NCBI GenBank assembly: GCA_050084515.1
Contig: CM114271.1
Span: 3,224,001-3,288,000, forward strand
DNA from: Blasia pusilla
Taxonomy: Eukaryota
DNA length: 64,000 nt
Direction of reading: 5' to 3'
The translations under genes were made by a program, and so were the position numbers. This document shows positions 8,572-44,284 of this stretch, in pieces; position 1 is the first letter of the stretch; each line of letters begins with the position of its first letter. The notes beneath the pieces were generated by a model. The model was given only the letters and a program-made list of their open reading frames with translations. It was not told where the DNA came from and made no database searches.

Positions 8572-8637
8572 CCAAGAGGTTAGCTGAACTGACAGAAGGT
8601 TCTCTCACAGAGGTCCCGGTTCAACTCCTCCCCTTGG
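8572..8637 (+). other. tRNA-like sequence (pseudo-tRNA or SINE head)
   Basis: A-box-like TTAGCTGAACTG, B-box GGTTCAACTCC and pairing ends CCAAG...CTTGG. The anticodon arm is not canonical. Confidence 0.3.
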
Positions 8638-9099
8638 ACAGTCTGATTCTGATGGAGAATTCCATTATTTTTTTATTATTTATTGCAAAACGTAAAACAT
8701 CGTTTCTCCAGTTAGTTGGGAATGTAGCCGTCGATAGTTCTTTTCCCCTGCCTATCCCACTGTGGGGGGCGGTCTCAACCCCAGACCCTACTTAGGGCAT
8801 GGATGGTCCATTTCCGAGAGAGAGTACGCCTTGTGTGCCTTGGCTGTGCTCCCGGGTCGAGAATTTGGACAAGAAAGTTGCAGACCTTCACTCAAAAACC
8901 AAATCTCCTTCATGGGAACCCCGAACAGAAACTTTTGAAATCTAGATGTGAAGGTGCCTGGCGGATGTGATGTCAATATCACATATGTGGAAGGGGTCCC
9001 ATAGGCCAGTTAGGCTTCCCGTGGACTAAAAATTAATTCTTCTTCTCCTTCTCTCTACACCCATCCCAGTCTTTAGCATTGTGCAACTAGGGCAGGGGT

Positions 9100-22360: not shown

Positions 22361-24289
22361 AGTTTTCAACCTTAAAAAATAATAATGGATTTGGAGTAGT
22401 AAGATTTAGAGCAAGATACCAGAGGTTTCTAAGTGTTGCATAACTCCTTGCCAAGAGAAAAATTTCTTGTAGGCTCCCAAAACTCCAATTATGGAATATG
22501 AAGTTATGAAATTAATTGGGCGTACGGCCAAAATTTCCGTAAAGACCAACTGAATCAACATGTTTCAACCTTCAAAATGACATTCTATTGGATGAATATT
22601 TACAAGTGATGGATGGAAAAAATATGGCTGAAAGATAATGATTGAGGATATTAATGAATAAAGATTGTAGAGCATGTGTTAGCGTCTTCATTGAAAATGT
22701 CTCAAATTTTAGAATCATATGCTTTCCAATGAAGATCTAGAAGGGATGGATGCAAATAATGAAGCTTGGAGGCTTGATTTGAGGATTTTTTTTTTATCAA
22801 GTGGAGGTTGGAGAGAAGATAGTGTCAACTATAGGATAGAAATGGGATGAAATTTCTCTTCAATAAAATGTTTTTTTAGTAGAATCGCTCTCATACATTG
22901 ATTTCCAATTTTTTTTTCTCAAAAATGAAATGATTGAGCCTACCTTATGAAGACAAGGTTCTAAGGTATATTTTTCATAGGATGTTATATAGTCTTTAAG
23001 AAATGGTATAATGAATCTTGTTGGTTTTGAGTTGTGATTCTATAGAGATTTCATAGAGTTTATGGTAGTCCTTTCAAATACTATTATTATTATGTATTCT
23101 TGAATCTTGATGTCTTACTAGCCTAAAAGGCCTTAAGTAAGTATGGTACATATAAAAGGATTGCCTTTCAAATTAAAATACTCTTAGAATTGCCTTGAGA
23201 ACGTATTGAGAAATACGCCCCTACAACGATGCCGTCTAAGAAAGAATTGGCCTCATAGTAGTAGGTAGTTTTCCCTCTTTTCTTCATGTTTGTATGATAC
23301 AACTTTGTGCTCAATAGCTAAAAATGATATGAACGACACCCCTAGGGTAAAAAATAAAAAAAGTTATGCAGATGATTCATCGCCATCTACTTAGTTTCTT
23401 CTTGCTTCTATAAACTGTGAGCTTTTCACCTAATCCTTCTAAAGTTCTCCATGCTTATAATTGAAGACGTTTATAAAAGGCATAGATATTTTCTCCCTTC
23501 ATATCAAACTTAATAATGTATCAAGATGTTAATGCTCAAACATCTAATTTGCAAAGAATTCTCAACATCTACTTTGTCATTCCTTGTTCATGTTTAGAGC
23601 TACTAAAAGTAGCCAAATCATAAACATAACCCATCACACAACTAACTCAAAAACATGGAGAGGTGAATGATCAAGCATCTACTTCAGAAGGAATTCTCAA
23701 CCGTATCGTGCGCATACACATTGCTACACAACATACATTGTTGTCGATAAGCATACACACAAACACACACAATCCCATGCTAACTCATGGCATCCAAACA
23801 ACGAGACAAGAAGTACCAAAATATCTCCAATAAATCAAGTAGATCTCACATCACGTCACATCTCTCTCAACAACTCACACCAAGCTCTCTATGGTGTGCA
23901 CTCTCTCTCATGTCAATCCAAACCTACTCTCCTAAAGGGAGGCTTGGGTTACACACACAAGGCAAGGAGGACCATAGCTCTGCCGCCTCCTGCCAAGAGG
24001 TTCAACAAAGAGAGAATGACCTCTCAAGCTCTCTCTCGTTGAGGTATACCCCCTTCCCTCTCCCAAGCTCTCTCCTCGGTAACCTATGCTCGTAGGTCAC
24101 CTCCTTGGCTCTTGACCTATTGTAGCGGGTCAAGGGCCACCTCCACAAGTGGAAAGTCAACTCTACTAAATATGGAAACTTATCCAAAATAGTAAGTTTC
24201 TCTATATAACTCCAAATGAGCCGAAACACGGACTCATCTTTAGGATGTCCCGGGTGAATCCTCACCGCGACCTCCTATCAGGTGATATA

Positions 24290-24615
24290 TGTGGAAAACT
24301 GCTAAACAAAACATAACTGGTGGAAAAATGACTCTCACACACACACACACACACACACACAATCATGGAGGACGAAATTTGCAATGAGAGAATGAGTGGA
24401 GGCTGGTCCTCTCCTCAATTATATAGGATATGTACAAGCAACCCTAACCCTACCCTTAACCATAGTCTCGAGTTAGACTAATTGTGATTAACTAACCCTA
24501 CTTAAGAGAATCGTGCTTAAGTGATTAACCAAGATTAAGCTTCCCTACTTTGTGTGAGTACCAAATGTAGGAGTTCATATGTCTCATAAGCTTGACTGTA
24601 ACTCAATCTTCAATA
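24290..24615 (-). repeat. copia 3' LTR
   Basis: Direct repeat of 27349-27662, preceded on the minus strand by PPT AGCTTGAGGGGGAG (24616-24629). Confidence 0.9.
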
Positions 24616-24683
24616 CTCCCCCTCAAGCTCATATTGATATCTCTAACGTCTAAATCCTTTCTAAAAATCTCAAACTTATCTCT

Positions 24684-25251
24684 AGACACGTCTTTTAGGA
24701 TAGATCTGTCAGATCTAGCAGAGCGCCTTCGTGAGTAGTGGAGGATAGGCTCAATAGGTGGAGGATGACTTACTGAGGCCCCGGGAAACGTGAGAGCAAA
24801 TTTCCCCATTGTTTCGGCTCATTTAGAGCCATATTGAGGAACTTATTATTTTAGGTAAGTACTATTTTTAGTATATGATCAACTTTTATTTTTGGTAAGT
24901 GGCCCTTGACCTCCATCAGGTCAAGAGCCAAGGAGGTGACTTTGGAGCGTAGGTTACCATAGAGAGAGCTTGGGAGAGGGGAGGAGTATACCTAAAGGAG
25001 AGAGAGCTTGAGGGCTCATTCTCTCTTTGTTGAACCTCTTGGCATAAGGCGGCGGAGCTATGGTCCCTTGCCTTGTGAGTGTAACCCAAGCCTCTCATTA
25101 GGAGAGTGGGTTTGGTTTGACATGAGAGAGTGTGCACACCTTTGAGAGTTATGGTGTGAGATGGTGTAGAGAGAGATTGGATCTTACTTTACAAAGAGAG
25201 AATGAGCCCTCAAGCTCTCTCTCCCTGAGGCATACCCCTCCCCTCTCCCAA
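24684..25251 (+). mobile_element. Family-2 A-repeat (element 5' end) inside the copia, ending in a fold-back inversion
   Basis: Matches 63031-63556 on +. 25191-25251 is the near reverse complement of 24970-25030. Confidence 0.8.
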
Positions 25252-27336
25252 CTTGGATGCTCTTCTATCTTGCTTTGGAAAAGGAAATCTAGCTTGTTTT
25301 CCAAATTGGCAAGCAGGAAATACCTCTAACGTAGCATGACTGGCTAATTTAGGGAGTCCTATTACTATATTAGATGATGAAAAAGTATATAATCTTTGAA
25401 GATTGATATGTCCAATTCTTTTATGCCACACATTTAGATTTGTGACTTGTTGGCCGATTTGACCATACATTGCTATTTGAATCTTTGGCACAGAAATATC
25501 TAATTTGAACATTCTGCCAGATCTAGTTCCTTTGGCTATTGTAGTCTGGTCACCCATTGATTCAATGAAACAACCATCTGCGTTAGACTTCACTTGATAA
25601 GCCTGTTCTATTATCTGTGCTATAGATATCAGATTTCTTGCAATAGTAGGAACATAGAGAACATTTCCAAGAGCACAAAGACCATATGATGCTATTGGAA
25701 CTTTACAGGTATGCGAGATATGATGTTGAGTGTCATCTCATGTGAGCACAATTGCAGGATCTTTCACCGGCTCCAAACTATTGAACCATTTAGCTTGTGA
25801 GATCATGTGATTTGATGCATCAAAGTCAATGTACCAATCTGTTGTCAAGTCTTTCTTCACCATTGCTCCCATATGATGAGTCATGACGAAGAGATGCTAT
25901 GTTTGTGAATGTTGTTGTTTTTGGTACTACTCTTGGTAGTGTTGCTCCACATAGTTTTATTGTTGTAAGGATCCTATTCTCATATCTTCCTTCTTCTTGA
26001 AACAAAACTTTGCATATTGACCCTTTATCCCACAGTAATTGCAAGATCCAGAGACCCTTTGTTGCTGACCTCGATCCCAACGATTTCCACCATCACCACC
26101 TTGTGATTGTGTCTGGTACTGGTTCGTAGTTGATTGAGTGACATTATATTGAGTGCCTCTTCCTCCATATGCTTCATATCCACCACGACCACGGAAGTTT
26201 TTGCCATGACCCCTGCCTCTGTTTGATCCATAATCTGCAAATAACGCACTCTCTTGTAGATTAGACGAGCTACCGCTGCCTACTAGGTGCATCTCTTCAC
26301 TGATCAATAGAGGAACTAACTCTTGAAAGGTTGGATATTTCTCTCTCACAGAGATAGAGGTCTCAAAGGACTTGTAATGCTTTGGAAGGCCTTGAAGAGT
26401 GAATAAAATCAGATCATCATATTCTACTGTCACTCCAATGCTATTCAACTAATCAACAATATGTCTGATACTCAAAATATAATCATTGATGCTCTACGAT
26501 CTTTTCCTCACTACGTTTAATTGTTGTTTCAATTGAAGCTTTCTGGCCTTTGTAAATGTCTAGAATAACTTTTCCAATGCATCCCAGGACTCCTTCGGAG
26601 TATCAACATCTTGGATGTGACCAATCATTGGCGAATTGATCGTTATTGCAATGTCGTGGATTACTTGCCTTACACGTTTGTTCCAAGTACGAACATTCAA
26701 GTCTGTTGAGTCACCTTCTAGCTTGGCCTCATCACCTATGACAAGCTCCCATAGTTCTTGACCCATGAGAAATTATTTCATGCAAAACTTCTAGATATTG
26801 TAATTCTGCTTGTCTAGCTTCTCGCCTGTGATTGATGTTGAGGAATACTCCATGATAAACGATTTCACTCACAAAAACATAATTTCAGGCTTTCTACTGC
26901 TCCAATTGAAGCATAGACTACTCTTACACAGAAATTGACCTAAAATTTGCCAAAATTGATCAAATGTAAGAAAGAACTAGTCGAAATTGGCTTGTAGAGA
27001 GCAAAGTACACAACTTTTCTTCACTAATTGCACTTTCCTACACGTCAGAGTGTCAGAATCGAGCAATTTTGGGTGCGTTGGAAAGCTCTCAATGAGCTCT
27101 ATAAGACGTCTAGAACAACCTTTGACATCATTCTAGCCAAAGCGGACCCAGATGGCTGAATCAACCGGGAAAGCCCTAAAAAACGCCTCCAAAGTTTTAT
27201 CACCGTCAAAGCTCCACTTGAAATCTGCACCCACTAAGTTATGAATAAAATTTCCTTCTCCCAAACTGAAATTTTGCCTTCTCTTGCCTCTCTTCTCTAT
27301 TCAAACACCAAGAATTTCAAGTGATGTTCTCCTCCC

Positions 27337-27348
27337 GCTGTGATACCA
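27337..27348 (-). promoter_or_regulatory. copia primer-binding site (tRNA-iMet)
   Basis: TGGTATCACAGC directly after the 5' LTR; one mismatch to TGGTATCAGAGC. Confidence 0.85.
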
Positions 27349-27662
27349 TGTGGAAAATTGCTAAACAAGCATAAGTGGTGGAAAACGGCTATCACACACA
27401 CACACACCACCATAGAGAACGAAATTTGTAATGAGATAATGAGTGGATTCTGGTCCTCAACTCAATTATATAGGATATGTACAAGCAACCCTAACCCCAC
27501 ACTTAACCATAGTCTCGAGTTAGACTAGTTATGATTAACTAACCATAGTTAAGATAATCGTGTTTAACTCACTAACCAAGATTAACCTTCCCTACTTCGT
27601 GTGAGTACCAAATGTAATAGTTCAGATGTCTTATGAGCTTGACTATAACTCAATCTTCGATA
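27349..27662 (-). repeat. copia 5' LTR
   Basis: Direct repeat of 24290-24615, followed by the PBS on the minus strand. Confidence 0.9.
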
Positions 27663-30600
27663 ATATATTGTGTGGTACTCGCTCCACCTAAGGATGTCTG
27701 TATCCGGAATGGACAACGCTCCACATGGGCCCTCGTCAAGCCCAAACCTCTGAATGCCGCTTTCCCCAACATGAAGGGGTTGCGCTCCTGAATCCAACCA
27801 GATGCATTGTGGACTAAAAGCTCTATCTCTTGGACTCACCAACTGGAAGACCTCTCCCCGGTTATCCAACAAAATAACACAAGGAGAAGCCATGGCAAGC
27901 TCTATCGCGGGTCTAGTGGGCATCTCCGCCATCCTAGCAATTGCAACCTGCCACGAATGTGACGTGGATGGCCCGAGCATCAGCTCCAAGGGCAAGTCCA
28001 TCACCTCCTCTACAATCACCTTTGAATGTGATGCATGAACTCCAACTCCAAGATCACATAGCGTAGCAGCCAACCGGAAAACCTCGGCGGGGGTACTTTC
28101 CAACGTCATAACATCGAAAGCAGAAAATAAAGGAGCGCGGTACACAATGGTGGACGCCCCCAACAACATACTTGACACATTCCCCTCTTGAGCATCAACA
28201 ATAGGAGTTGTGGCACTCTCTTCTCCCATCGCCAACTCTCCGAGAACTCTTATCAGAACCCGTCGATGGGGTCCTCATTGCCTCGAACAACGTGAAAGAC
28301 TAATGAAGACTGGTCTGTTTCTTGGCTTCCCCCCGCTGTGGATCCAAATCTGCGACTGCTCCACGCGTAACAACTCCAAGGGCCTCCATCTGGGCAACCC
28401 CGCACATCCAACCAGGATCCTCCATATCTATGGCGGCTCCATAAGACATCGATGCCACGGATCCGGCATCGGGTAACCTCAATGCCATAGTAGCAATCTG
28501 CTGCTGTAGCTGATGTATCTGAGCAGCCATCCCAGCCTTACGCTTGGCATCTCCCTCAACGCGTCTAGGTGGGGGAACTTTACCTCCTCCATGAACAACT
28601 CCATCATCCCCTTGGGCGAATCCATCTTCTCGTCTCCCAATGGGACCACCTGGTGCACGGCCTCTAGGCCCACCTAGACCGGCAACTCGCTATGGTGCCC
28701 TCTCTGGCCCTCGATCCAGACGTAACTTATGGTGCAAGCACAAATACTTGGCGTGTGTGTGACCTCTGAAATTAGTCACATTGATAATCTCTTGGTGCAG
28801 CCCCATCTCCTCCTCCATGTTACGGTAACCGACCATGACCCTGACGAAAGCAATGGTGTTGATGATGGGCTCCACCACATGACCAAAACGTAATCGTAGA
28901 CGGTTGCTGCTGAGCCGCATATGAAGGCGCAGGTCTCTGTGGCACGGCCTCCCGATATCCTCCCTTAGCTTGTGGTGTCACAGACCTATCTCGGAATCCA
29001 CGTTGTTGCATTGATGGTGCAGAAAATCGTGACTGCTCTCCTCCGCCATGTTACGCTCAATATTCTCGGCCGTCCTTAAAACATCTCTCAATATAGGGGA
29101 GGTGTTCATAAGAAGTATCCCCTCCTGCACATGTATCCGCAAGGTCCGGTCCAACATCGCGTACCATGACTAGATAGCATGAGCCTCTGTCATCCCCTGA
29201 GTGACGTTAATCAACCGGCGCAAGCGGGTGTAGGCCTCATGCAAACTCTCACCCGGGAGCCTCTGGAAGTCGTGGATGCTCCGCAACTTCTCCGTCCGTA
29301 CCCCCTGGTAGCTCGCCCTCAACTCAGCAAAGAACTCAACCACGAGGTTGAACCTCGGATGAACTCGACTGGACAATGCAACTGCTCCAGTGTGAGTCAC
29401 CCCTCCTACAACATCACTGATGGAGGAACCCTCTCCTAAATCCTCCTCCTTATCAAGAAACGGATCAGTCCATGCCACATAGGGTGGGTCATAGTAGAAT
29501 CGCCATTCCTCAATCTCTTGGGCATATCTGTGGGGGAACTCATGATAATCATCCATGGGTGCCCTCTCTAAATGTTGGAATGTACCGTTCCATGTTGTAA
29601 ACAGGTTGAACTCTCTAGAGTTCCTAGCCCGTTGTGAGTCACACCAACTACTAAAATCCGCAATGAAGTCCTGTAGCTCTATGATGCCTACAGCACCCTA
29701 AGCGGTCATCTACCCCGATCGTCCATCTCGTACGCCCAACTGGTAGGACCACTCAATGTGTGCGGTGGATCACTAGCACACTCTTCTATACTCTCCCCCT
29801 CGTTTGAAGACAACACAAAAGGAGACCGAGGTGGTCTCTCATGTGGAGACTCTGGAAACTTCACACCACTCCGGGCAAACCCTCTAGAGCTACTCTTAGG
29901 TCCACCACCTCGCCTCTCAAAGTCCCAAAAGGACACCGTGATGATCCTCATGCCCCTCTCACACGATCACTTTCAATCTCACGAGTAATCACTCAATCAC
30001 TCAATCCAACAATCGGCTCTCTATCTACACTCTCTCACTTAGACGTGTCTTGTGCGGCAACATGCGGCGTGGTGTGGCAAATCATCGACTGCCCTATCAT
30101 CTCATCGGCAAGACACACCCTCAACTTTGGACATCCCACACATGTCTATGTCCCCTAACCCATACATCAATGATGCTCTCACCATCAGCCCGAAACCCAA
30201 TATCCCCAAATAACTTCCCAATACCCGGAAATCCCTAACGCGTGTAGGGCAAAAGACCAGAATGGGTAATCTGAATGTCTGTGTCGCTCCTCACCAATTG
30301 CAAAACCTCGACCCCAACTCGGTCGTGAAAACAACTCCTCCAAATAGTATGTCGTACTCCCCTGGTACTGACGGTGCTCAAATCTCCTCAATGTGCGGTG
30401 CGGGTCCAGTGGTACGGTACGGCAGTGGCGGCACGGAACGGCACGGCACTCGAGAATGGGGTGCGGCATTGAGTGGCATACCCTCCCCAACAACAAAACA
30501 CACACTCTGCTCCCAAGTGATGGTGCAGCTCCGCGATCAAAAAGTGCGGTGCGGCCACGAGCGGCACCGCGCAGCAATTGGCGACGTGTTGCGGCTACGA

Positions 30601-33600
30601 GCGTCACAGCACGTTATTGGATCGTCGCCGAGTGGCTACAAATCACAACGCAGCAAAGCGGAAAAGAATGGAGACCCCATCGACCCAAAATATCACCTGT
30701 CATTCCTGAGCGGTCAATCCTCAGTCGATCGATGTCCAAACGGCGACTGAAAAATCGGTGGCGGAGCTAATGACAAAAATCAACGGCCGTCAATTACTCA
30801 ACGGAAACTGACAGCTGCAGAACACCGACGGATGTCGGTCGGACGGACCCAGTTGGTAGCAGCGGACGGCGTAGGTGCGTAGCCGGATGGAGCGACGCAC
30901 AGTAGGACAGCGACTCAACCCGCGGCAGACGAGAGGGAGACTTCAGGTTTCGATGGGGTCCCGGCAACGTGACGCCGACAGTCGCGTAGGGCGCGTAAGG
31001 CACATAGGGTCGGCTGGTAGAGCCACCGAAGAAAGACCGCGACGGATGGACGGCACGTGGCACAGAAAGCGGCGAACTATGGCTAGCGGCAACTCCCCCT
31101 AGCATACGACAACGGAGAGGGTCGCAGACCGGGTGTAAGGCGTCGGCTTGACGCAGCCGGTCGCGAGCCGGATCACAGAGACGGCAACTACGTCGAGCGA
31201 CGGCAGCAGGTCAGGGTTGGCCGAAGGCAGGAGCTCCAGACAGTCACGACAAGAACACCAGTTGACGCACATCAATTTTCTGGCACATACGGCGGGCCCG
31301 CGATAGTAGTTGGGTACCGCCGCTACCGCGGTAGTAGCCACGGGACGGCGGCTGGTCGCGACGCACACGACGTGCGAGCAAAGTGGGCGGCTTCGTAGCA
31401 AGGTCGACCAGGAGGCACGGAGCAGGTGGCGACTCCGGCTAGCTCCCCCACGGCTGTGGCAACCTAGCGAGGCTACGGCAGCTTATGAATCCGTGACAGC
31501 AGGCCAGGCCACGGCGGACCGGGCTGAAAGGCGCGTCTGCGGGAGCAGTAGCGATCGGAACGCGTCGGAGAGGCTGACGGCAGAGCCGGGCGGATGTCGT
31601 CCCTCCCCCAAAATTTTGTCTTCTTACTAAAATACCCCCCGGAAAAACTGGGTCGAAACTAAAATTGCTTAACTTGACTCCCCCCCCTCTGACAGATTTA
31701 CAAATTGGATGATTCTCCGCAATCAGTGGGTCAACTCTCCTATTTTATTTTTCACTCAACTTCTACCTCTGAAAACATTTGTCCCTTGTCCTACCCACTG
31801 AGATGACACATAACTTTTTTTCTACCCATCACCAAGGATTTTGGAAATTTCACTCATACCTTGGGACGGTGGCCATGGCAGCCCAACAAAAACTATTGTA
31901 ACTTCACGCTCAGCTCATGAAATTGCGCACCATTTCTTCTCCATGTGCACAACTTCTTGATCTATGACCTCGTTGAAATGGTTTCTCCATTCGACCTTCC
32001 AATAAAAACTGGCAGGAACTGTCGTGCAACTCAACATCTCTTCTCCTACACAAAATTTGGCAGCGCTTCCGTGTTGATTTCTCCCAGCGCAAATCGAAAA
32101 CTTGTGAAAACATAAACCAGCAAGCTACACGATGCTCTCGAGAGCACCGGCATGGGGCAACCCGCCCCCATACTCAATCCCTATCAAAAATTGGGCAGCG
32201 CTTCCGCGCGCCACTCTTCCACACAAAAAATTGGCAACCGCAAAGCACAACCAAAGCCACTCTTGCTCCGGTGAGCACTCCCATGAGTGGCTGAATGGGG
32301 AATACGGTCCCCAACCTCCAACAACAGCGAGTGACCAGCGAGCTCCTCCATTGAACTCTCTCACTCTCTCATTCTCTCTTTGTAAATCAAGTAGATCTCA
32401 CATCACATCACATCTCTCTCAACATCTCACACCACTCTCTCTCATGTCAAACCAAACCCACTCTCCTAATGAGAGGCTTGGGTTACACACACAAGGCAAG
32501 GAGGACCATAGCTCCGCCGCCTCATGCCAAGAGGTTCAAGAAAGAGAGAATGACCTCTCAAAGCTCTCTCTCGTTGAGGTATACCCCCTTCCCTCTCCCA
32601 AGCTCTCTCCTCAGTAACCTATGCTCGCAGGTCACCTCCTTGGCTCTTGACCTGTTGTAGCGGGTCAAGGGCCATTTCCCAAAGTGGAAATTCAACTCTA
32701 CTAAACATGGAAACTTACCCAACATAGTAAGTTTCTCTATATGACTCCAAATGAGCCGAAAGAAAGGGGAAACCTGCTCTCTCAGGTTTTCCGAGACCTC
32801 AGCAGGTCATTCTCGACCTCCTCATCCTGTCCTCCTCTACTCGCAAAGGCGCTCTACCAGATCTCTCTGATCTATCCTAAAAATTTGTGACAACCATCAC
32901 CTTCGCCTCTTCTTCCTCGTATGAATTCTAACCTTCTCGCTTTTCCCTTCTCCATTCTTGTAGATGCAAAGGATCGAAATGAAAAAATTCGCAAGCATAC
33001 ATTGACATTGCACAACCACCTCAATAAAAGGAGAACAAGATGTAATTTCTAAAGGAAATTATACGTATGAAAGGGCTCATAATAAACCCACAAATGTGTA
33101 CGCTTGTGTGTAAGTCCAAAGAGCCATTTATTTTTATACTTATGTTGAATTCATCAAGTTTTCACAAGATAGTTATAAGATACAAAGAATCTAGGGGTTT
33201 ATTTGCAAGTGCTTTGGAAGTGTTTTACAAAGATTTTGTAACTTTGTGATTGCGCTCTAGAAAAGTCAATGTATTTTGCCACCTAGAACTCATAAACTAT
33301 CAAAGCAATTATATGGAAATCATCCAATAAATGTATGGAATTCTCTAATAAGAGGGGTCTAAACCAATGAGAATATAAAAACTTGAAGTTTCTAAAGGAT
33401 GCATGATAGTTGTTCATTTATAAAGAGCCATAAAAGAGAGAATCTTAGAAAGTGGAAAATCTACACCTAGCCTTATCAAAAATAACCTTGCGCCTATTCA
33501 TCCTCAGGCTAGAGGCACAAGAGTTAGACGTGGATTATGATTCAAGAGGGGCTCATACAAAACAAGTCATCTCTAAGGGATTTCGGACCTAAGACCTACA

Positions 33601-34093
33601 CCTCCGCAATGAGCACTCCATCCACTCCCTGAGTCTCCAACGTGATATGAACGGTATTAATAAAATTCTAAATCTGTTATCCAAAATAGAACATATGGCT
33701 TCAGGATTTTGACCTCGGGGTTAACTAACCCAAGGATGAATAGGCCCAAGGAAAAATAATCTTGATCACCATATGGAATTTCTACATATGAATGTAACTT
33801 GAAGTCTTTTTTTTTATATATAAATGGTTCTAAACTAATGCATTGGGTCTAACAAATATTTCCTTGAAGGCTTAATGGGATTTCATAGGTGGTCTTGCAA
33901 ACTCTGTAATTCACAAAAAACTGATTTTAAAAGATTAGGTCGCTCTTTCCTTCTTCATCTTTCCTAATCATGGATTGCTTAAAGATTAGAAGAACAATTA
34001 AATGGCTTTATAAAAGTACATTTGACTTGCTCATGATTGTACACACAGTTTCTCTAAGTCCAAAAACTTAAGTATATGAGAATAGTAGCTGGC

Positions 34094-34461
34094 TGTCATG
34101 ACCATACGAATTATGTCGTAGAGTATAGCGTGCTAATAGAAGCCATACCTTATGTAGGGCCATAGTGTCTAGGTAGAGATGCGGTTTCATACATAGGGTT
34201 GGGGGTTACTCAGTTGAGGGTGACTTTTCCAATAGGGCCCGCTCTTAGGTTGGAGGATATAGTGTGGAGTGCACTCAAAGAACAGTTAGTTCTTTGAGTT
34301 GAGCCTGTTGCGTTGGAAGTTAGCCTTGGTAGTGAGTAGAGCTCTTGGCTATGGTGGTTCTCGTAAGCTTCGACCTGGATTCTCCCATCGTGGAGTGGGT
34401 TTGGCTCGACAGGATGTGATTCTATACGTGTTTTATGACAGTAGGTCTTTCATGGATTTCA
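34094..34461 (+). repeat. Split repeat A1 (368 bp)
   Basis: Colinear with 42986-43353; about 17 mismatches by manual count. Confidence 0.95.
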
Positions 34462-35020
34462 CTCAAAGAACTAGAGTAGATCGATGGTAGCTTCGATTGT
34501 GGATCAGTAGGATATGGTTAGGGCTGATTGTGTACTCAGACGTGGATGTTCGTGGCTTGTGGCCTATGTTGGAGTTGGGAATCTGGTGCATGGTTGGTTG
34601 GTAAAGAATTGCCTTGCTAGAGCTTTCCAACGCGCTTTAGATCACTGGATTTCGTTAAGGGAGTTGGAAGTTGGAGAGCTTGGAGTGAGGAAGCTCTGTT
34701 GAAGTTCATCCAGATCGGGTGAGAGGTTCTTGTTGCTACTTGTATTGTGATCTCATATGAAGCTATATGCTTGAGTGTTTGGAGCATTGTGTATTTCTGC
34801 GTGCATGAATCTGGGTGGAAGCGCTGTCGGATTTGCGATTCCGGAGGTGTATGGACAACAAGTTTGTCTGATTTTAAGCTCGAAGTACAGAGCTCGGTTG
34901 TAGCTGATTTTTTGTGGAGAGATAGCTATGGTGGTCAATTGAATTCTGGTTGAAATAGATTCAATTTTGGTTGAGAATTTGTGGAGTAATTTCTGATCAA
35001 AATTTTGCGGACTAGCTCAA

Positions 35021-35080
35021 GGTCTGGCTATGGTGGACAGCAGATCGGAGGGTCTGGCTATGGTGGACAGCAGATCAGAG
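35021..35080 (+). repeat. 2 x 30 bp tandem repeat in the element's 5' leader
   Basis: GGTCTGGCTATGGTGGACAGCAGATC(G/A)GAG twice. Confidence 0.9.
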
Positions 35081-35807
35081 AGGCTTCGAGGCATCTCGTG
35101 GTAGCTCAGTGCAAGTGGGCGTGAGAGGCGGAGTAAGGATCAAGGATTAAGCAAGAAAGCTTGCTTGCTTGGGCATGAGGCAGGTTTTGCAGGATTTGTG
35201 ATTTGAGTGTTGCATAACTGGTCACCCATCTTTGGGCTATTCTGCCTGGAAGACGCTTAACCGCTGAGTTCTTAACTATGCTAGTGTACACACTGGTGTA
35301 GCTCATTTGGTGTTGTTCGGAGATGTGTTAGGCGCTTTATGCATCTCAGGTTTTTGGTTGATGGATCTCTAGCGCATAGTACGGTGTAGCCTCTCCATGC
35401 AGTTGATATTTTCAGGTGCTGCGAGTCCGACTAGCACGTCATCGACCCGCGGCGGAGTAGTTATTGCGTTAGAATTTTGTAGTGGGTTCTGTGGATTTAA
35501 GGGGCGCCACGTTTGGTGGATTGTGTTACCTTGATTTCCATTTGTGATTAGAGGGTTTTCGTTGGACTTCCTGTGTTTGGATCCCCTCCATCCTTGCTTC
35601 TTGCTTGCGCGCCCATTGTTAGGGTTGACGTTGATTTCCATAGTAGTGTTACTCCTGTGTGCTACCGGTAGTGAGGCTGGAGTGATGACCAGTAGACCGT
35701 GGGAGCTTTCTTGTGGTGATGACACGTTAGGTTGCCTACACCCATAGCTAATAGAGCTAGAATAGTACAGCGACATCGACGTCACTTGGCTACTTAGTGG
35801 TGGTAAT

Positions 35808-38300
35808 TTGGTGGTGGTGCGGCATCGGCGTTGGTCATCACGGAGCTGTCTGGTGGCCTGGTTGGGCCTGGTTGGGGACCGTGATGCGGACAGTGGTGGT
35901 TTTACACGGAGTGGATTGAGGTATCTACTACCTTTTCCACTTCTGACGGTTGATGAAGAGAAGGACGAGGGTGTTCCAAACACCGAGTCTTCTACGTTGG
36001 TATCGAGTGTTGCAGCTCCATTGATTTGGGACATGGACGAGATATATGGGGCCATGAAGGGCCCACGATGATACTCGGATGCAGTGGACACCATTGAGTT
36101 GGAGGACTTCATGCAGGAGTTTGATACGTGATGTGATATGCAGCTGTTGCGGAACGCCACGTTGTTTACACCCTTCTTGGCTAGGAAGGGGTTGTTTCAA
36201 CACTTGGAGGGACCACCCATGGACGATTACCATGAGTTTAGGAAGGACCATGTTGTTGAGATTGAGGCGTGGAGACAATATTGGTCTCCAGGCTATGTGT
36301 CTATCACCCATGGTGGTATTGGTAGTAGTGCTCCTACTATGCCAGCCAGCCCGACGTTGAGTGGTACGAGTACGAGCAGGAGTGGGAGTACCAGTGGAGA
36401 TACCGGTGGGGGTACTAGTGGAGGTACTAGTGCCCCACCATCGTTCAGCCTGCTTGTAGAGTTCTTCAAGAGGTTGAAGAAGAACTATCAGGGAGTGAAG
36501 ACAGAGAAGTTGAGGAGTCTTCAAGAATTTGAGCGAAAGATTGGTAAGAGTCTTCGTGAGGCATACACTTGTATGCGTCGCTTGATTTCACTTACCCAAG
36601 GTGTGACTAAAGCTCAAGAAGTCAAGTTTTGGTATGGGATCTTGGACAGAGAGTTGCGCCGCAGGGTATATGATCTACTCTTATGAGTGATGATTCACCC
36701 ACATTGACCCATGTGTTTGCTCTATCTGAGAAGATTGAGCTTAATATGGTAAAGGGGAGAGTGGTGACATCCGCATTCAGTAGGGATACAACTACTACTT
36801 CTCGTGTTCAGCAGCCCATCTCACATTCTCGTAGTAGTGGTGGTGGTAGTAGTAGTGGGAGTCGTGGGGGTTACACACGACCTCAGTCAGGTCCTAGAGG
36901 GACACTTGCGTAGAGACCATTGCCTTCATTTGCTGCCCCGAGCAAGGACACTCATGTTGGACATGTGGAGCTGATCATGTTAGGAGTTTTTGTCCCCAAG
37001 AGGATGGGAGACGGACTTTGGAGGATGGGCCTCAATCGGCCCCAACTCAGAGTGATCATTGCGGGAGACCAGGTCATCCTCGAGAGCGTTGCTTTGATCT
37101 TCATCCAGAGTTGAGATCAGGCCGCAGCCGTGGTGGAGTAGCTCCGAGAGGCCGAGGTGGTAGAGGTGGTAGAGGTGGACCATTGGTTGGAGAGCCTACG
37201 GTGGCTATCCCTACCACTACGACAGAGTCAGCTATGGCTGCCAGGATTGAGCGATTGGGAGCGGTTGGCTTCTATTGTTGGTATCCAAAGATAGATCAGG
37301 TTCGGGAGCAGCGGCTTCCACCTCTTATGGAGGGATGATCTCTCTTATATGGCGAGTGCAAAGACCGAGGTTGAGGCATCGCAGCGATTTGAGAGGAGCC
37401 ACTCGAGCGTTAGAGCCACCTGGTGCTACTGTGGAGTTGGACCCACAGAGGGGTGAGGTTGGGAGGCAGGCTAGGCTTCCCCAATCATACTTGTTGTCTG
37501 AGGTGCTTAGGACTCCATCCATGGTTCCTACGCAGCCTATTGAGCCGACAGTGGGGACCGAGGCATCTACATCGCGTGTAGTAGACACGGATGCAAAGAT
37601 CAATGCAAAGATTGTGCGGATGGCAACTTTAGTGTTGGGATCCCCATTGTTTTCGGCCACGAAGCTGATGGCTTGAAGAGTTGACTTAGCTCGTGTATTT
37701 CAGCTAGCAGCCACGTTGTGTGAACGTGGGGATGTTACTGCTATACGTGCTGAGGTGGATGAGGGTGTTGCGGTGGAGCGACCCTCTATGTCAGGTGTAG
37801 CATTGAGTACTAGTGCTACTTGGCAGGCAACAGCGGCGAAGATGGATGCATTACCAGCCCGGCCAGCCATTGATCGTGAGAGGCTTACACCTGGTGTATG
37901 TATGTTGGACAACCAGAGTGGGATATTCCGATTGGTGAGTCCTACAGGACATGTGTATAGACCAGATAGAGTCTTGTTAGACTCTAGTGCCTAACCTTTG
38001 ATGTTGGGAAAGGCGGCATGTATTGGTTTGGGTATTCGGAGGTCAGAGCTTGAGCCTTGCCCATTCCAGATTCAAACATCACTTGGAGGAGCCAATGATA
38101 TGTCTCAATTCATGACACGGGAGAAGTTTTCTGTACAGTTGAGACCAGATCATGTGACTGATAGCTCCCGATTGGGAGTACCTACAGTGGTCACATCAGC
38201 CGAGTCATATGATGTACTAGTTTGAGGAGCATTATTGAACCCGATGGGTTTTCAGATGGATTACTGGACTGAGACAACGTCTTATAGACCTGGTAGGCAA
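35808..38300 (+). pseudogene. gag (two knuckle remnants) and aspartic protease of family 1, interrupted
   Basis: Gag-like ORF 36138-36686, knuckles CWTCGADH....C (~36955) and xDHCGRPGHPRERC (~37050), protease VLLDSSA*PLMLG (~37970-38010) and SYDVLV*G. Confidence 0.8.
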
Positions 38301-38699
38301 TCCGGGGATGGACGTATGAGCCAAGTTTATGTGAGATTTGTTTATGGGGCTCGACCAGGAGGGTCTTCCCCAACAGCGTTAGCATCTGTGGCTGGTTTTA
38401 GTGGAGTAGTCACTTGGCCAGGACAATTTTTGGAGGGTAATGTTTCCGCTATGGATTCTCTTGTGCATGAGGAGGTAGAGGAGGTCCCTATTTTTGTAGC
38501 AGTGGCATCCTCATCATTGGATGTGCCACTTTGGAGTTCAGGCGGTGCACTACGGCAGGAGGCTGATCGCCTAGTGCAGGAGGCTTGGTGTGAGGTTGTT
38601 ATATCTCACGAGGAAGAGGAGGCCCCACGGCGGACTCCTACTTCTGGTCCAGTTGGGTTATCTCCTTTGGATACTACACCCATTGTATGGCAGTATCCG

Positions 38700-39640
38700 C
38701 CGAAGGGCATTTGTGTGTTAGATCTCTTTGGTGGGATTAGCATTGGTTTGGCTCTAGTGTTGCAGGCCGGTATTCCTGTGCGGAGATACGTGTATGTGGA
38801 GCAAGATGAGACGGCCCAGAGAGTCTCATCCCGACATATTGGTCAGTTGATGCGGAGATATCCTGAGTTGTTGCCGCCATCAGCTATTCGTGGGTACTAG
38901 CGTGGTTTGCCGTCACACATTGCATTGTTGCGGGCGCAAGACCTTGAGAGGGTCGGTCCTGTGGATTTGGTGATTGCTGGATGGCCATGTCAGGGTCATA
39001 TACGTGTTGGTTGTGGTAAGGGATTACACGACCCTAGGTCTTGATTGTTTTGGGAGATGTTACGGGTGTTACAACATCTTCAGGTTCATCAGGCACGTGT
39101 TCCAACTTACATTCTGGGTGACACTCGGACCCAGATGATGGTGAGTGTTCATGAGGTGCGGTCTTGGATTGGACCAGAGGTGTTGTTGGATGCAGTGCGA
39201 GTTGGCTCACGTGCACATCATCCACGCTTGTGGTGGACAAACTTGTTTCCTAGGGAGGTTCTACGTCGAGCATATGATGTAGTGCAGCGGGATCCTTGCC
39301 TTACAGTGGATAGTATCTTGGATAGTGGGCGACTTTCTCAGGTGGTGAGGGTTATTGATCGGTCACCCATGGCAATGGTGAACCGTGTGGGCCAGCCTAG
39401 GATGGCACTACCCACATTTGTGAGTTTTCCCTCGTCACATGCCTACAAGGAAGGTGGTCTCGGGCTTGTATGGGATTCTCATGTGCGACAGTTGGTGGAG
39501 CCTAACGCTGATGAGAGAGAGCGTGCGATGGGATTTGCTACTGGTGAGACAGTGGTTGCTTCCATTTCTGAAGCTTCACGACGTCATGTGTTGGGTCAGG
39601 CCATGGACCTGAATTGTTTGACTTGGATTTTGAGTCTTGG
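38700..39640 (+). pseudogene. C5 DNA-cytosine methyltransferase domain inside pol
   Basis: One frame read through stops at 38898 and 39042: motif I VLDLFGGI (38715), motif II YVYVE, motif IV DLVIAGWPCQG (PCQ at 38985-38993), motif V DPRS*LFWE, motif VIII LDAVRVGSRAHHPRLWWTN, motif IX ERERAMGF, motif X LGQAMD (39591). Motif VI (ENV) is absent. Confidence 0.9.
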
Positions 39641-39980
39641 TATGGACGAGCAGCGTCGACTTTGGACTATGTCCATGGGTCTTCCACCCCTTGTGATGAG
39701 CTCGATGGCTACCGGGACGGTAGAGGCATCGGCTGGGGGCAAGGATAGTAGTATTTTGCATCCTTGGAGTAAATGGGATGTAATGGCTAGGCATGTGGAG
39801 TTGGTTGCTCATGCTGGTGGAGGAGTTATTTGCTCAGATGATGGTGTAGCTAAGGGTGTACCATCTTGTGAGGGGATTGCGTAGTAGCCAATGGCATCGT
39901 CCTCTCCCTCTAGTGTGCCAGTGGAGGAGACTTAGGAGCCATTACTTGGGCCCAAGCTTACGGGAGGTGAGAAACGACGC

Positions 39981-41000
39981 TTGACACAATTCCTACGTGC
40001 TTATAGGAGTTGTTTTGCCTTGAGCATGAAGGAGTTGGGTGCTTTGGTTGGACCCGGTATACGGATTGATTTGGCTAGTGATATGCCAATCTTTCGTCGT
40101 CCCTACCGATATAGTGATATGGAGAGGGACCTGATTCAGACTAGGACGTTGGACCTTTTGGAGGCTGGATTAGTGGAGTTGTCGCATGGAGAATATGCAC
40201 CTACCGAGTTTCAGAGAGTGATGGACAGCATCCTAGCAGGGTTGGATTTTGTTTGGTGTTACATTGATGATATCTTGGTGTTCAGTAACATGGTGGAGGA
40301 GCATCATATACATTTGCAGATTGTGTTCGAGCGGTTGAAAGCTCATGGTCTACGTTTGCATCCAGGAAAGTGTAAGTTCTTCCATGAGGATGTTGAGTAC
40401 TTGGGTCATGTGATCTATCCAGGTGGTTTGGGAGTTCAGCAAGCAAAGGTGGAGGCTATTGCACTTATTCCGCGTCTGGTAGATGTGAGTAGAGTTTGGG
40501 AATTCATGGGATTGGATTACTACTATCGGAGGTATGTGAAGGGATTTAGTGCTATGGCAAAGCCTTTGAACCAATTGCTAAAATCATATCAAGAGTGGCA
40601 CTCGGGAGATGATCAGGAGAGAGATTTTGTGGAGCTCAAGGCCTAGTTAGTGGCGGCGCCTATCTTGAGGAGACCTATCAAAGGGCGCCCATTTCAGTTA
40701 TACACCGATTGGAGTAGGTTGGGACTTGGAGCGGTGTTGACACAACATGATGATGAGCACATGGAGTTTGTGGTGGCCTATGCAAGTCGTTCGATTAATA
40801 CAACGGAGTTGTGCTACAGTTCATATGAGGGAGAGTGCTTGGCAGTAGTGTGGGTTGTGGCACACTTTAGGTGTTACTTGTTTGGCGCACAGTTTACCCT
40901 TGTTACTGATCACCAGCCGCTCAAGTGGTTGATGGAGTTTGACAAGCTTACAGGGAAGCTTGCACGGTGGGCTCTTATCTTACAGGAGTATGACTTCTAG
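39981..41000 (+). pseudogene. Reverse transcriptase (internally deleted) and RNase H
   Basis: RRPYRYS, PTEFQRVMD, CYIDDILVFS, KCKF, YLGH; RNase H LYTDWS, YSSYEGECLAVVW, TDHQPLKWL. Confidence 0.93.
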
Positions 41001-42704
41001 GTGATACATAGACCTGGAGTTGCCAACCTTGATGTTGATGGGTTGAGTAGGAACCCATGTACTAGCCAAGAGGATGCAACTGGGGCTAGATGGCATGGCG
41101 AGGTTGATGAGGAGATGGTGCCAGGTTGGCATGCATCCGCCTTTTTATGTTGGTTAGGGGTGGACTCTAGTATGGAGGACCACATGACATCTTACTCTAG
41201 TCAGAGGGTAGATGGCCAGCCTTCAGATCCTAAGGTTGGAGATGGTGGTACGGATCAGCGTGATATTCATGATGATGCATTGGTGTTGGAGTTCCTACGG
41301 ACCAGTAGGGTGCCAGGCATAGTGAGTGCCAAGGAGCGAGACCGTGTTCTTCAACATGCTAAGAGGTATCGATTGGAGGGAACACATATTCTCCGTGTGT
41401 GGGAGGATGGTAGAGTACGAGTAGTGCCGCATTTGGCTCGGAGAGAGCGCATTGTGCGACATGCCTATGAGGAGTTAGGACATTTTGGGGTAAAGCGTAC
41501 GTATAGCTTACTCCTTGGTCAGTATTGGTGGCGTGGCATGCATACTCAGGTGCAGCACTTGGTGTCATGTTGTATGGTTTGTGACCGGGTGAGGGCATCA
41601 TTCAATGCTCCTACACCACAGTTACACCCCTTGCCTATTATGGGGTTGGGTTACCGTTGGAGTGTGGACTTTGCGGGACCGTTACCGTTGAATGTACGAC
41701 ATCATCGATATGTGTTGGTGATGGTGGAGCACTTCTCCAAGTGGATTGAGTCGGTAGCATTACCTGACAAGGCAAGTGAGGAAACGGCGTATGCCTTTCT
41801 TGATAGAGTGCTTAGTCATTTTGGTGCACCAGCTGAAGTGCTGACCAACCAGGATACAGAGTTTCAGGGTGAGTTTCAGGTCTTGTGTGACAAGGCGTTG
41901 ATTGATCATCGGACCACGTCTCGAGATCATCCAGAGGCGGATGGTTCGGTTGAGCGTGTGTTTCAGAAGGTGAAGAGGGCATTGTGCAAGTATGGCCTAC
42001 AGAAGGGGCATCTTGGAGATTGGGATATTCAGTTGCCATGGTTAGCCATGGGGTATAGGTTCAGTCGCCAAGCATCCTTGGCTTTCTTCTCACCTTATTT
42101 TCTCTTATACGGCCGAGATCCAGACTTGCCAGAGGAAATTCGTCAAGAGTCTAGTGAGGTGGTGAACCTTGATAACCCAGAGATGTGGATGAGAGTGTGT
42201 TCTCAGCGGGCAGAGCTCTTTCAGAGAGTTATGCCAACAGCCTTTGAGAACCTTGCCATGGCTCAACACAGGGAAACGTTGCGGTATGCAACCATTCGGG
42301 GTGGAGGTTATCGACCATCGATTCGTAGGTTCCATGTGGGGGACTATGTCTATGTGCAGAAGATTGCATCGACAACGTTGGATGTGACGGCAGGTCGCAC
42401 TATTTTACGAGTGCGCGAGGTGTTAGCTTATGGAGTTCTCATGTTGGAGGGTTGTGATGGAGTTTTTTGGAAGGACCATGTGCGTAATTGTACGCCATAT
42501 CATCTTCCAAATGTGGATGGTACTCTTGAACCAAGCTTAGCCATGATACGTGCTAGCTTGAGGTGCATGTTGTGTGGATCTACTGGTAACGTAGCCCGTA
42601 TGTTGGTGTGTGATCGGTGTTCTAGGGATTGGCACATGATGTGTTTGACTCCACGTATGGATGTTGTTCCTACTGGAAGGTGGGTTTGTCCTCGAAGTAC
42701 TTAG
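41001..42704 (+). pseudogene. DDE integrase with a C-terminal PHD finger
   Basis: HHCC-type GHFG...CMVC. Core SVDFAGP / VLTNQ (D>N) / SVER. C-terminus CMLC...MLVCDRC...WHMMCLTP....P.GRWVCPR at 42564-42701; the last Cys is lost. Confidence 0.92.
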
Positions 42705-42876
42705 GAGAGGTAGATGACTTGATCTTTGCATGATATGGATTACATATAGGCAACTAACGATGGGGCAACCTAGCACCCGACCTTCTGATTCATGCACCCA
42801 AGAAGGTGTATAGCATGTAGTAGATGTATAGGGCTACCTGGGAGTTAAAGGGACCTAACCGCCAGTTAGAGGCGCA

Positions 42877-42983
42877 AGTTGTGGTACACTTGTGTTTGTG
42901 GATGCTCTCGTCTATGTTATGTATGTATGTGAGTATGGTATGTCAGCGATGTATGTTGTATGACGATGTGGATTCGCACGATA
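42877..42983 (+). repeat. Split repeat B1 (107 bp)
   Basis: Colinear with 43353-43459. Confidence 0.95.
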
Positions 42984-42985
42984 GC

Positions 42986-43353
42986 TTTCATGACCATACG
43001 GATTATGTCGTAGAGTATAGAGTGCTAGTAGAGGCCATACCTAATGTAGGGCCATAGTGGCTAGGAAGAGATGCGGTTTCATACATAGGGTTGGGGGTTA
43101 CTCACTTGAGGGTGACTTTTCCAATAGGGCCCGCTCTTAGGTTGGAGGATATAGTGTGGAGTGCACTCAAAGAACAGTTAGTTCTTTGAGTTGAGCCTGT
43201 TGCGTTGGGAGTTAGCCTTGGTAGTGAGTAGAGCTCTTGGCTATGGTGGTTCCCGCAAGTTTCGACCTGGATTCTCCCATTGTGGAGTGGGTTTGGCTCG
43301 ATTGCATGTGATTCTATACGTGTTTTATGACAGTAGGTCTTTCATGGATTTCA
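42986..43353 (+). repeat. Split repeat A2
   Basis: Copy of 34094-34461. Confidence 0.95.
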
Positions 43354-43459
43354 GTTGTGGTACACTTTTATTTGTGGATGCTCTCGTCTATGTTATGTAT
43401 GTATGTGAGTATGGTATGTTATCGATGTATGTTGTATGACGATGTGGATTCGCACGACA
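43353..43459 (+). repeat. Split repeat B2 (element 3' end)
   Basis: Copy of 42877-42983; ends CGCACGACA. Confidence 0.95.
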
Positions 43460-43920
43460 TGGGCAAGTTGATCTAAAATTTTCTCAATCCTATCCCCGGC
43501 ACCTATTCATCCTTGAGTTAGATCAAGAGGGTCATAGGGTGAGTTAGACAAGGAGGAGTACTAAAAAAAACCTTGAGGTGTGTGGCCAAACTTGAGCTTA
43601 GGACCAACTAATCTTCAAGGAGCCTATTTCCCGCTATGATAAAATATCCTACATGCTAGGAGGGAGAACAACAAATAATTTATTCTTTTATCCATTTGCA
43701 AACCCATAGTAAGTTACCTTAACCACAATAAGAAAATCCAAGGATGAATAGACTCAAACATCCTATCTTATGATGTGGATAGGTAGGCCCTTGAAAGTTT
43801 CATCATAAGTGTAGCAGAATGTTCATATTTCAAATATTAAGCCTTCTCACACATACATATCATATCCATAAGGTTTCTTGAATTCTTGCAAGGGAAAAGT
43901 GGGCATGACATTATATCTTA

Positions 43921-44284
43921 GGGCCTTATCCCATGGCCCCGTTTCTTGGGGTCGCGTGCGACCCCAAGAAACGGCCCTCTGGCTGAAATCTCCGGTTGGC
44001 TGCCTGTTCTCACCCGGTTTCAGGCTGAATACCCGGCCTGAAACCGCACACCCCCCCTCCCCTCGCTAGTCACTCTACAGAATCGGTCTGTCACTCGCTC
44101 TCCAAAGAGAACAATCTTGGGGTCGCACTTCTTGCGCCCAAAAATTTTGGCCGCAAGGAATGTGGCGATCCCGTCAAGTTTCTGCAACTCCGACTACAAA
44201 CATACAACTTTGGGTCATAGGGTAAAGTTGATCTAGCCTAACGGCTAACGTCGGTGAGTGATGTTGGCCCATGGGATAAGGCCC
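43921..44284. mobile_element. PIF/Harbinger (Tourist-like) MITE, 364 bp
   Basis: Perfect 16-bp TIR GGGCCTTATCCCATGG / CCATGGGATAAGGCCC, with TTA on both sides. Confidence 0.9.

Follow-up and report, generated by a model that had tools for sequence, protein, structure and literature searches.

A degenerate Gypsy-DNMT3-type retrotransposon in the liverwort Blasia pusilla, with split repeats and integrated ends at a palindrome that probably lies inside its long terminal repeat

We analysed a 64,000 nt stretch of the genome of Blasia pusilla (GenBank assembly GCA_050084515.1, contig CM114271.1, positions 3,224,001 to 3,288,000 of the forward strand; hereafter the window), which contains a 9.4 kb Ty3/gypsy-type retrotransposon at window positions 34094-43459 on the plus strand. 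The element encodes, in this order, gag, protease, a DNMT3-like methylase, reverse transcriptase (RT), RNase H, a DDE integrase and a PHD finger, and it is of the "Gypsy-DNMT3" kind, known first from Klebsormidium, with whose elements it was compared by description only. The integrated copy is not bounded by two complete identical long terminal repeats (LTRs), its repeats being arranged as A-internal-B-A-B. The best overall explanation, to which we assign a probability of roughly 60%, is that the window holds a dead copy of a Gypsy-DNMT3-kind element whose self-primed complementary DNA (cDNA) carried LTRs made of B followed by A, and that this cDNA was joined, opened at a palindrome and inserted. 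To the earlier description of such elements the present analysis adds a conserved stop between two open reading frames (ORFs), the layout of a self-primer and a polypurine tract, integrated ends at an internal palindrome, a 4 bp target duplication and an A2/B2 joint that resembles a joint of LTR tips.

Repeat finding and base-by-base reading resolved the window element as A1-internal-B1-GC-A2-G-B2. Repeat A1 (34094-34461; this and all other stranded features of the element lie on the plus strand) starts with TGTCATGACC and ends with TTTCA, B1 spans 42879-42983, A2 spans 42986-43353, and B2 (43355-43459) ends with CGCACGACA. A lone G at 43354 links the end of A2 (..TTTCA) to the start of B2 (TTGTGG..), and the same G precedes B1. 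A1 and A2 are identical at 351 of 368 positions (Kimura two-parameter distance, K2P, 0.048) and B1 and B2 at 100 of 105 (K2P 0.049), equal divergences that are expected if one insertion event made both pairs. The termini, TGTCATG at the start and CACGACA at the end, form a terminal inverted repeat of the TG..CA type. On either side lie TGGC (34090-34093) and TGGG (43460-43463), a candidate 4 bp target-site duplication matching at three of four positions.

The split-repeat layout is a trait of the family. All seven independent 5′ ends (loci L002, L003, L005, L006 and L020, the single locus seen twice as L024 and L025, and the window) start at the same bases as A1, with unrelated DNA and no B repeat upstream. 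All five independent 3′ ends (L010, L013, L017, L025 and the window) stop at ..GCA(C/T)GACA, as B2 does, and TG..CA was present at all ends seen. Locus L025 reads A1-internal-B1-A2-B2 within a perfect AAGG/AAGG duplication, and L002 reads A1-internal-B1-GC-A2 up to the end of its contig. Self-comparison of the more distantly related L016, L018, L027, L029, L031, L032, L034 and L036 detected no terminal repeats, their contigs being short or probably collapsed at repeats and hence uninformative.

Signals resembling those that prime reverse transcription were found at two places in the element. Directly 3′ of A1 lies a primer-binding-like site, CTCAAAGAACTA (34462-34473), which is the exact reverse complement of a candidate self-primer segment inside A, TAGTTCTTTGAG (34287-34298). 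A hairpin, CTCAAAGAAC-AGTTA-GTTCTTTGAG (34274-34298), and a TATA-like motif (34257-34262) also lie inside A1. The perfect complementarity between the sequence directly after A1 and the segment inside A is longest in L020 and L024/L025, at 16 nt; it measures 12 nt in the window and 9 nt in L002 and L005. In L020 and L025 the self-primer segment lies about 30 nt downstream of TATAAA. A tRNA-type primer site was considered and rejected, as the site after A1 lacks the initial TGG. Directly before B1 there is a purine-rich tract, TAGAGGCGCAAG (42867-42878), a candidate polypurine tract that reads AGGGGGGCGAG in L002, L010, L013 and L025 and AGAGGCGCAAG in the window; it adjoins B1, not A2. By the logic of reverse transcription, the self-complementary site after A1 and the purine tract before B1 together define the LTR as B-GC-A, a unit whose start, (G)TTGTGG.., follows the purine tract and whose end, ..TTTCA, precedes the primer site. 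The A2/B2 joint, CA-G-TTGTGG in the window and CA-A-TTGTGG in L025, looks like an end-to-end joint of two such LTR tips.

The integrated ends are located at the B/A boundary, not at the tips of the B+A unit. Where this boundary is closed it reads ..CACGACA-GC-TGTCATG.. in L002 and ..CACATGACA-GC-TGTCATG.. in L025, and the GC dinucleotide separates B1 from A2 in three of three junctions. The boundary of the window copy, CGATA-GC-TTTCATG, is two bases off the CACGACA-GC-TGTCATG form, its junction TAGCTT (42982-42987) being a decayed version of the family's CAGCTG (..GACA-GC-TGTC..). Chance alone would place the 10 nt palindrome GACAGCTGTC 0.6 times in 634,534 bases, whereas six loci contain it. 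Among them is L040, a circularly assembled contig of 8768 bp with a methylase only 31% identical, in which a purine tract, TG.., the palindrome and a 17 nt primer segment follow one another, with the exact complement of that segment 250 nt downstream.

These results bear on several claims of the original prediction, which was made from the letters of the window alone. The element that it described is real, with boundaries at exactly 34094 and 43459, the repeat order A1-internal-B1-A2-B2 and TG..CA ends. The prediction had also set these ends apart from the usual arrangement with primer-binding site and polypurine tract; this needs correcting, as a primer-binding-like site and a polypurine tract were both found, flanking the B+A unit rather than the integrated ends. 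Normal LTRs in related copies, which it had named as a finding that would speak against it, did not appear, since B is absent upstream of A1 at all seven 5′ ends.

We propose that the element replicated as follows. The RNA is predicted to start at or just before AACATAGTTCTTTGAG, with a poly(A) site predicted inside A2, and reverse transcription would be canonical, primed in the style of Tf1 by the RNA's own 5′ part on the site after A1. Plus-strand priming at the purine tract before B1 would then give a cDNA with B-GC-A LTRs, i.e. LTR(B+A)-internal-LTR(B+A). Joining of the cDNA ends, into a 2-LTR circle or a tandem-LTR form, would create the A-end/G/B-start joint that is found between A2 and B2. 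The DDE integrase would bypass the LTR tips and cut after CA on both strands of GACA/GC/TGTC inside one LTR, its putative closed-junction substrate being ..CACGACAGCTGTCATG... Both ends produced by such cuts would have a recessed CA-3′ strand and a GC overhang, as retroviral ends do after processing, and the molecule, now opened as A-internal-B-A-B, would be inserted with a 4 bp stagger. The integrases of foamy virus and HIV-1 have been reported to cleave a palindromic 2-LTR junction (PMC1180852, PMC1905944). We put the odds that the integrase opens circular or tandem-LTR cDNA at the palindrome at about even. Extended to the family as a whole, the proposal would be that a lineage of DDE-integrase retrotransposons that spans green algae, liverworts and mosses has shifted its site of integration from the LTR tips to GACA-GC-TGTC inside the LTR, integrates from circular or tandem-LTR cDNA and makes a Dnmt3-type methylase in Gag amounts by means of read-through ORFs; we hold this wider proposal tentatively, its chances being a little under one in two.

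Several observations weigh against the proposed route. Both ends are known for only two insertions, with a perfect duplication in one and a match of three in four in the window, and the A2/B2 joint was likewise seen in only two copies. The primer complementarity is lost in two of the seven independent copies (L003 and L006), and the starts of RNA reads cluster at 34255/43147, a position 32 nt upstream of the proposed primer segment. The circular or end-joined intermediate, which the original prediction had already put forward, fits both the A2/B2 joint and the ends at an internal palindrome; it is nonetheless inferred from integrated copies only, no such DNA form having been observed. The other palindrome of a 2-LTR circle would yield A-B-A-internal-B, an arrangement unseen among the seven 5′ ends. 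Every copy examined at the DNA level is broken, leaving current activity without direct support. Finally, in L010, L013 and L017 the internal sequence is followed by B and then flanking DNA, without A2-B2; such contigs could stem from genuine insertions of the form A-internal-B, from deletion between B1 and B2, or from the assembler jumping across the 113 nt B repeat. L017 is also rearranged at 4923-5819, where an inverted A fragment, A(188-340), a 10 nt primer site, 6 bases, B and flanking DNA succeed one another, and its internal region is nearly all lost.

An alternative that we consider unlikely is a linear route like that of DIRS elements, in which the RT would switch templates across B1-GC-A2 to produce an A-internal-B-A-B cDNA and the integrase would only trim GC. 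It would account for the GC dinucleotide, which at all three B1/A2 junctions is what ordinary 3′ processing takes off ..CA-GC ends; moreover, the repeat geometry is common to DIRS, PAT and Ngaro elements (PMC8969392), and DIRS-1 has been reported to amplify through linear single-stranded cDNA (PMC7192593). The positions of the priming signals argue the other way. The integrated ends have no primer sites, in that the B end is not purine-rich and no primer complementary to the start of A was found, and the conserved signals occur instead at the A end and the B start. The A2/B2 joint, furthermore, consists of exactly an A end, the base after the purine tract and a B start.

The original prediction had presented the union of DDE integrase, split repeats, methylase and PHD finger as a candidate new system. 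That the element represents a categorically undescribed system is, in our judgement, very improbable, and the novelty claimed for the combination does not hold: Gypsy domains, Dnmt3 and DIRS-type repeats in the order A-coding-B-A-B already occur together in KnitGypsy-Dnmt3 of Klebsormidium nitens (de Mendoza et al. 2018, PMC5890265), which later works (a 2025 paper and a 2026 preprint) cite as "streptophytes (Gypsy-DNMT3)", and transposons of Chlamydomonas are reported to carry PHD fingers commonly, as an accessory domain (PMC8557442). What speaks for novelty is that a land-plant host and the PHD finger are absent from the literature text found, figures and supplements aside. With the same restriction, the main text of PMC5890265 contains no "target site", "circular" or "PHD" and no bryophyte elements, and our literature search found no text placing the family in a land plant or describing the palindrome.

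It is more improbable still that the split repeats are secondary, the element having inserted by ordinary LTRs and the A..BAB copies having arisen from tandems by rearrangement or partial deletion. Tandems and solo LTRs are indeed known from LTR elements, and the copies seen are all old and broken, but chance rearrangement sits poorly with 5′ ends at the same A base in seven of seven cases and 3′ ends at the same B base in five of five. A perfect 4 bp duplication surrounds an A..BAB copy (L025), the TGTCATG/CACGACA inverted repeat is found at the integrated ends and not at the B+A tips, and the same layout has been reported for Klebsormidium (PMC5890265).

Relatives were sought with the methylase part among proteins of polyprotein length, which gave 72 related polyproteins. 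Marchantia polymorpha is the name given for fourteen of these, whose methylase parts show 60-72% identity; one is from Sphagnum fallax, one from Cymbomonas and many are metagenome polyproteins; a precomputed PHD family is assigned to 27 of the 72. A domain-length search, of which the best 120 of 293 matches were considered, added Calypogeia fissa, Sphagnum troendelagicum, Marchantia paleacea and Closterium, and no Klebsormidium-named protein was present among the 72 polyprotein matches or these best 120 of 293. Two domain orders exist among the relatives, protease-DNMT-RT-RNase H-integrase(-PHD), as in the window, and RT-RNase H-DNMT-integrase-PHD. In a quick, unrooted tree of the methylase (67 of 73 rows, alignment of at least 300 residues) the second order occupies one side of a single branch, with 97 support in the Shimodaira-Hasegawa-like approximate likelihood-ratio test (SH-aLRT), and the window element falls within a bryophyte clade (SH-aLRT 100). 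Metagenome contigs were also scanned with the methylase alignment, the best 80 of 309 confirmed loci being kept. Two loci of the RT-RNase H-DNMT-integrase-PHD group contain duplications: a 3.5 kb stretch occurs twice in L028 (1-3492 and 6557-10048, 99.97% identical) and an exact 824 bp tandem stands at the start of L030 (1-1648). Neighbouring copies, LTR-like units in tandem or artefacts of assembly could each account for them.

That the methylase is a piece of a host gene captured once, by the window copy alone, can be dismissed almost entirely, the weak Pfam score of this decayed methylase being the only argument for it. Among the metagenome loci, the first 26 have the methylase in the same place, as do Sphagnum and the 14 Marchantia-named proteins, and 14 methylase sequences (35-71% identical to the first) share 44 invariant columns, including AGWPCQ and EN, the bryophyte methylases forming the single clade noted above.

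The family is present in high copy number and is transcribed in liverwort. In DNA run X2 the contig word depth, which is not a copy number, was 2433-6736 across the interior bins of the element against 1.4-4.4 in its flanks, and in a second organism (X6) contigs were 90-99% alike across 27 of 30 bins. RNA run X22 contained 4702 reads at 85% likeness or higher, only 12 of them at 99% or higher, with the first mate on the minus strand in nearly all reads. Depth was about 20-30 on the 5′ side, rose to 80-158 near the 3′ side and was 5.5 in the last bin. Other copies of the family are therefore transcribed, in one sense, and the window copy hardly at all. Sixteen RNA reads (12 start places) lack 1008 bases of the integrase region (41223-42232) and have 9 other letters in their place; they derive from a deletion derivative or from a rearranged copy.

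Between A1 and the coding region lies a long non-coding leader (34474-36032) that contains a 30 nt tandem pair (35021-35080). The gag region, with CCHC knuckles (36033-37340), has suffered at least three frameshifts: the Marchantia protein P0002 aligns to it by tblastn at 36033-36683 in frame 2, at 36674-36937 in frame 1 and at 36940-37257 in frame 3, and the alignment resumes from 37392 onward in frame 2. The frame 37677-42704 then encodes protease, DNMT, RT, RNase H, integrase and PHD with nine internal stops. Read through these stops, it matched the Pfam families RT_RNaseH (2.9e-34), RVT_1 (5.2e-16, profile positions 126-205 only, i.e. the last 80), Integrase_H2C2 (3.2e-13), rve (2.2e-11), PHD (3.4e-08) and DNA_methylase (4.4e-05). 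The last of these scored 23.5 bits, barely over the cut-off of 22, and was obtained on the read-through frame only, Pfam having missed the methylase on the separate ORF pieces.

Within this frame the protease region (37677-38225), which has one internal stop and one terminal stop, reads VLLDSSA where relatives have VLLDSGA; the relative P0037 carries Asp_protease_2. The DNMT3-like C5 cytosine methyltransferase domain (38658-39740, two stops) retains motif I (DLFGGIS) and motif IV (GWPCQ), and its ENV motif is deleted (YILGDTR, compared with YILENVPLLGDTR in Marchantia). The RT (39936-40646) has lost its N-terminal part at 40195/40199, past which the reads of other copies continue into sequence absent from the window. 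It is followed by RNase H (40608-40991; residues 978-1105 of P0001), the integrase with its H2C2 zinc domain and DDE core (rve; 41439-41933) and the C-terminal PHD finger (42564-42695; last Cys lost, stop at 42702-42704).

With its gag frameshifts, nine in-frame stops and deletions of the RT N-terminal part and the ENV motif, the window copy is dead. Where it differs from the family reads of DNA run X2, it mostly has A or T and the reads G or C (A>G 123, T>C 117; C>T 48, G>A 45), consistent with decay through C-to-T change. On the element's coding strand there is a strong excess of G over C (skew +0.19 to +0.29), unlike in the flanks (window 34001-44000). The gag-protease-DNMT-RT-RNase H-integrase-PHD anatomy given in the original prediction is borne out by matches in Pfam and the Protein Data Bank (PDB), including Pfam matches for all four families (DNA_methylase, RVT_1, rve and PHD) that it had proposed for checking the polyprotein; the domain order of the copy thus stands, and its integrity does not, given the stops, the loss of the RT N-terminal part and of ENV, and the replaced Cys of the PHD finger.

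One of the nine stops is ancestral. An in-frame TAG TAG (39882-39887), a candidate read-through site, separates ORF1 (gag-protease-DNMT) from ORF2 (RT-RNase H-integrase-PHD), and a stop was found at the homologous post-methylase codon in 12 of 15 loci bearing the end-of-methylase motif, a conservation that implies an ancestral origin. The remaining three (L005, L008 and L009) are frameshifted or rearranged at the ORF boundary, and a sixteenth locus, L040, lacks the end-of-methylase motif. Seven loci have TAG or TAA followed by CAA CCC, three have TAG CAA TCA or TAG CAG TTA, and two (the window and L015) have TAG TAG CCA. UAG-CAR-YYA is a read-through context of plant viruses, and the three loci with TAG CAA TCA or TAG CAG TTA fit it. 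The Marchantia gene models terminate at the same ORF1/ORF2 boundary. To judge from the conserved codon, the family possesses an ORF1 and an ORF2 in the same frame that are probably joined by read-through.

Among solved structures, the best match of the window methylase as a single sequence was DNMT3A (4.5e-11), and a profile of 14 relatives searched against the PDB matched DNMT3A (2e-21), DRM2 (1.5e-08) and HhaI (1e-08). The ESM Atlas look-up with the methylase returned a Streptophyta C5 methylase cluster and phage methylase clusters only. Stops are carried by 17 of 18 methylase regions, the sole stop-free one being that of L002, which is broken elsewhere. The PHD finger fits the C4HC3 signature, with its last Cys replaced in the window and intact in relatives. 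Its nearest solved relatives are KMT2C/D, DPF2/3, CHD4, ATXR5, KDM5B, PHF21A, WSTF, UHRF1 and AIRE, several of which are readers of the unmodified H3 tail. The methylase would be made in Gag amounts from ORF1 and, with the integrase-borne PHD finger, would form a pair of conserved accessory modules that may influence the chromatin state and the target choice of new copies. The suggestions of the original prediction that the lineage methylates its own cDNA and reads H3 tails for targeting are likewise conjectural. Some algal-type relatives (L040 at 8000-8749 and the C-termini of P0039 and P0040) have an extra domain of about 250 aa after the PHD finger, which is absent from the window's family; it has a weak N6_N4_Mtase match (E 0.0049, below the cut-off) and DPFAG and SPW motifs, and may be a second methylase.

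The surroundings of the element include a host gene and further repeats. An uninterrupted ORF of 1165 aa on the minus strand (55658-59155) encodes INTS3 (Ints3_N 1.7e-166), an intronless host gene between transposons. Its product is 72% identical to that of Marchantia polymorpha over the whole length, 66-67% to Riccia, 67% to Calypogeia, 53% to Sphagnum and 50% to Ceratodon, which points to a liverwort host other than those compared. Next to the element, at 23899-32761, lies a second retrotransposon. Its direct repeats (23899-24226 and 32433-32761, spacing 8535) are 94-95% identical, and it contains a Ty1/copia-type gag_pre-integrs ORF on the minus strand (25210-25737). A dispersed repeat occurs in two copies 38.35 kb apart (24792-25148 and 63141-63502, 84-93% alike), and an 83 nt tandem pair lies at 20695-20860.

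Compared with known systems, the window element shares with KnitGypsy-Dnmt3 a non-rearranged Dnmt3-type methylase in a Gypsy polyprotein and repeats in the order A-coding-B-A-B. Its host, by contrast, is a liverwort, and the text on KnitGypsy-Dnmt3 does not describe a stop between ORF1 and ORF2, priming signals, a palindrome, a target duplication or a PHD finger. The host range of the kind is thereby extended to liverworts, with relatives in Sphagnum, and in liverwort the family is very abundant and transcribed; since Marchantia, a genetic model, carries many copies, the functions of methylase and PHD reader and the read-through design can be tested in it. In our view the internal-palindrome anatomy is of greater importance than this extension of host range. 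Split direct repeats of the form A1-internal-B1-A2-B2 are also found in DIRS, PAT and Ngaro elements, including SymbioDIRS-Dnmt3, some of which carry methylases. Those elements use a tyrosine recombinase and make no target duplications (PMC8969392), whereas the window family has a DDE integrase and a 4 bp duplication; no Pfam match to a tyrosine recombinase was found in the window polyprotein at E values up to 1, and rve is present. If the proposed route is correct, it explains DIRS-like split repeats without a tyrosine recombinase.

In its gag, protease and RT-RNase H-DDE integrase order, TG..CA ends, short target duplication and PBS-like and PPT-like (primer-binding and polypurine) sites, the family agrees with Ty3/gypsy elements (Metaviridae). 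Self-priming elements of the Tf1/sushi type have a stretch near the 5′ end of the RNA that is complementary to a site after the 5′ repeat, and they integrate via ordinary LTR tips. The self-complementarity of 12-16 nt after A1 would be a Tf1-like feature if the segment inside A lay at the 5′ end of the RNA; unlike in Tf1/sushi, A also contains a second copy of the site, which folds into a hairpin there. A chromatin-reader module fused to the integrase C-terminus is likewise known from the chromoviruses of the Ty3/gypsy group, their reader being a chromodomain and that of the window family a predicted PHD finger. As in the 2-LTR cleavage of foamy virus and HIV-1, a DDE integrase is here proposed to act on a closed palindrome of juxtaposed CA and TG ends. 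The retroviral palindrome is, however, a tip-to-tip joint of LTRs, and its use in integration is debated, whereas that of the window family lies inside the LTR and is apparently the regular site of integration. Priming signals that define one LTR, and an integrase that would use a palindrome within it, offer a testable route by which a DDE integrase could arrive at split repeats. The family also provides a natural setting in which to study a long-standing question, whether a closed LTR junction can serve integrases as a substrate. If the proposal is true, it would represent, in natural and obligatory form, the circle-junction route that has long been disputed for retroviral integration.

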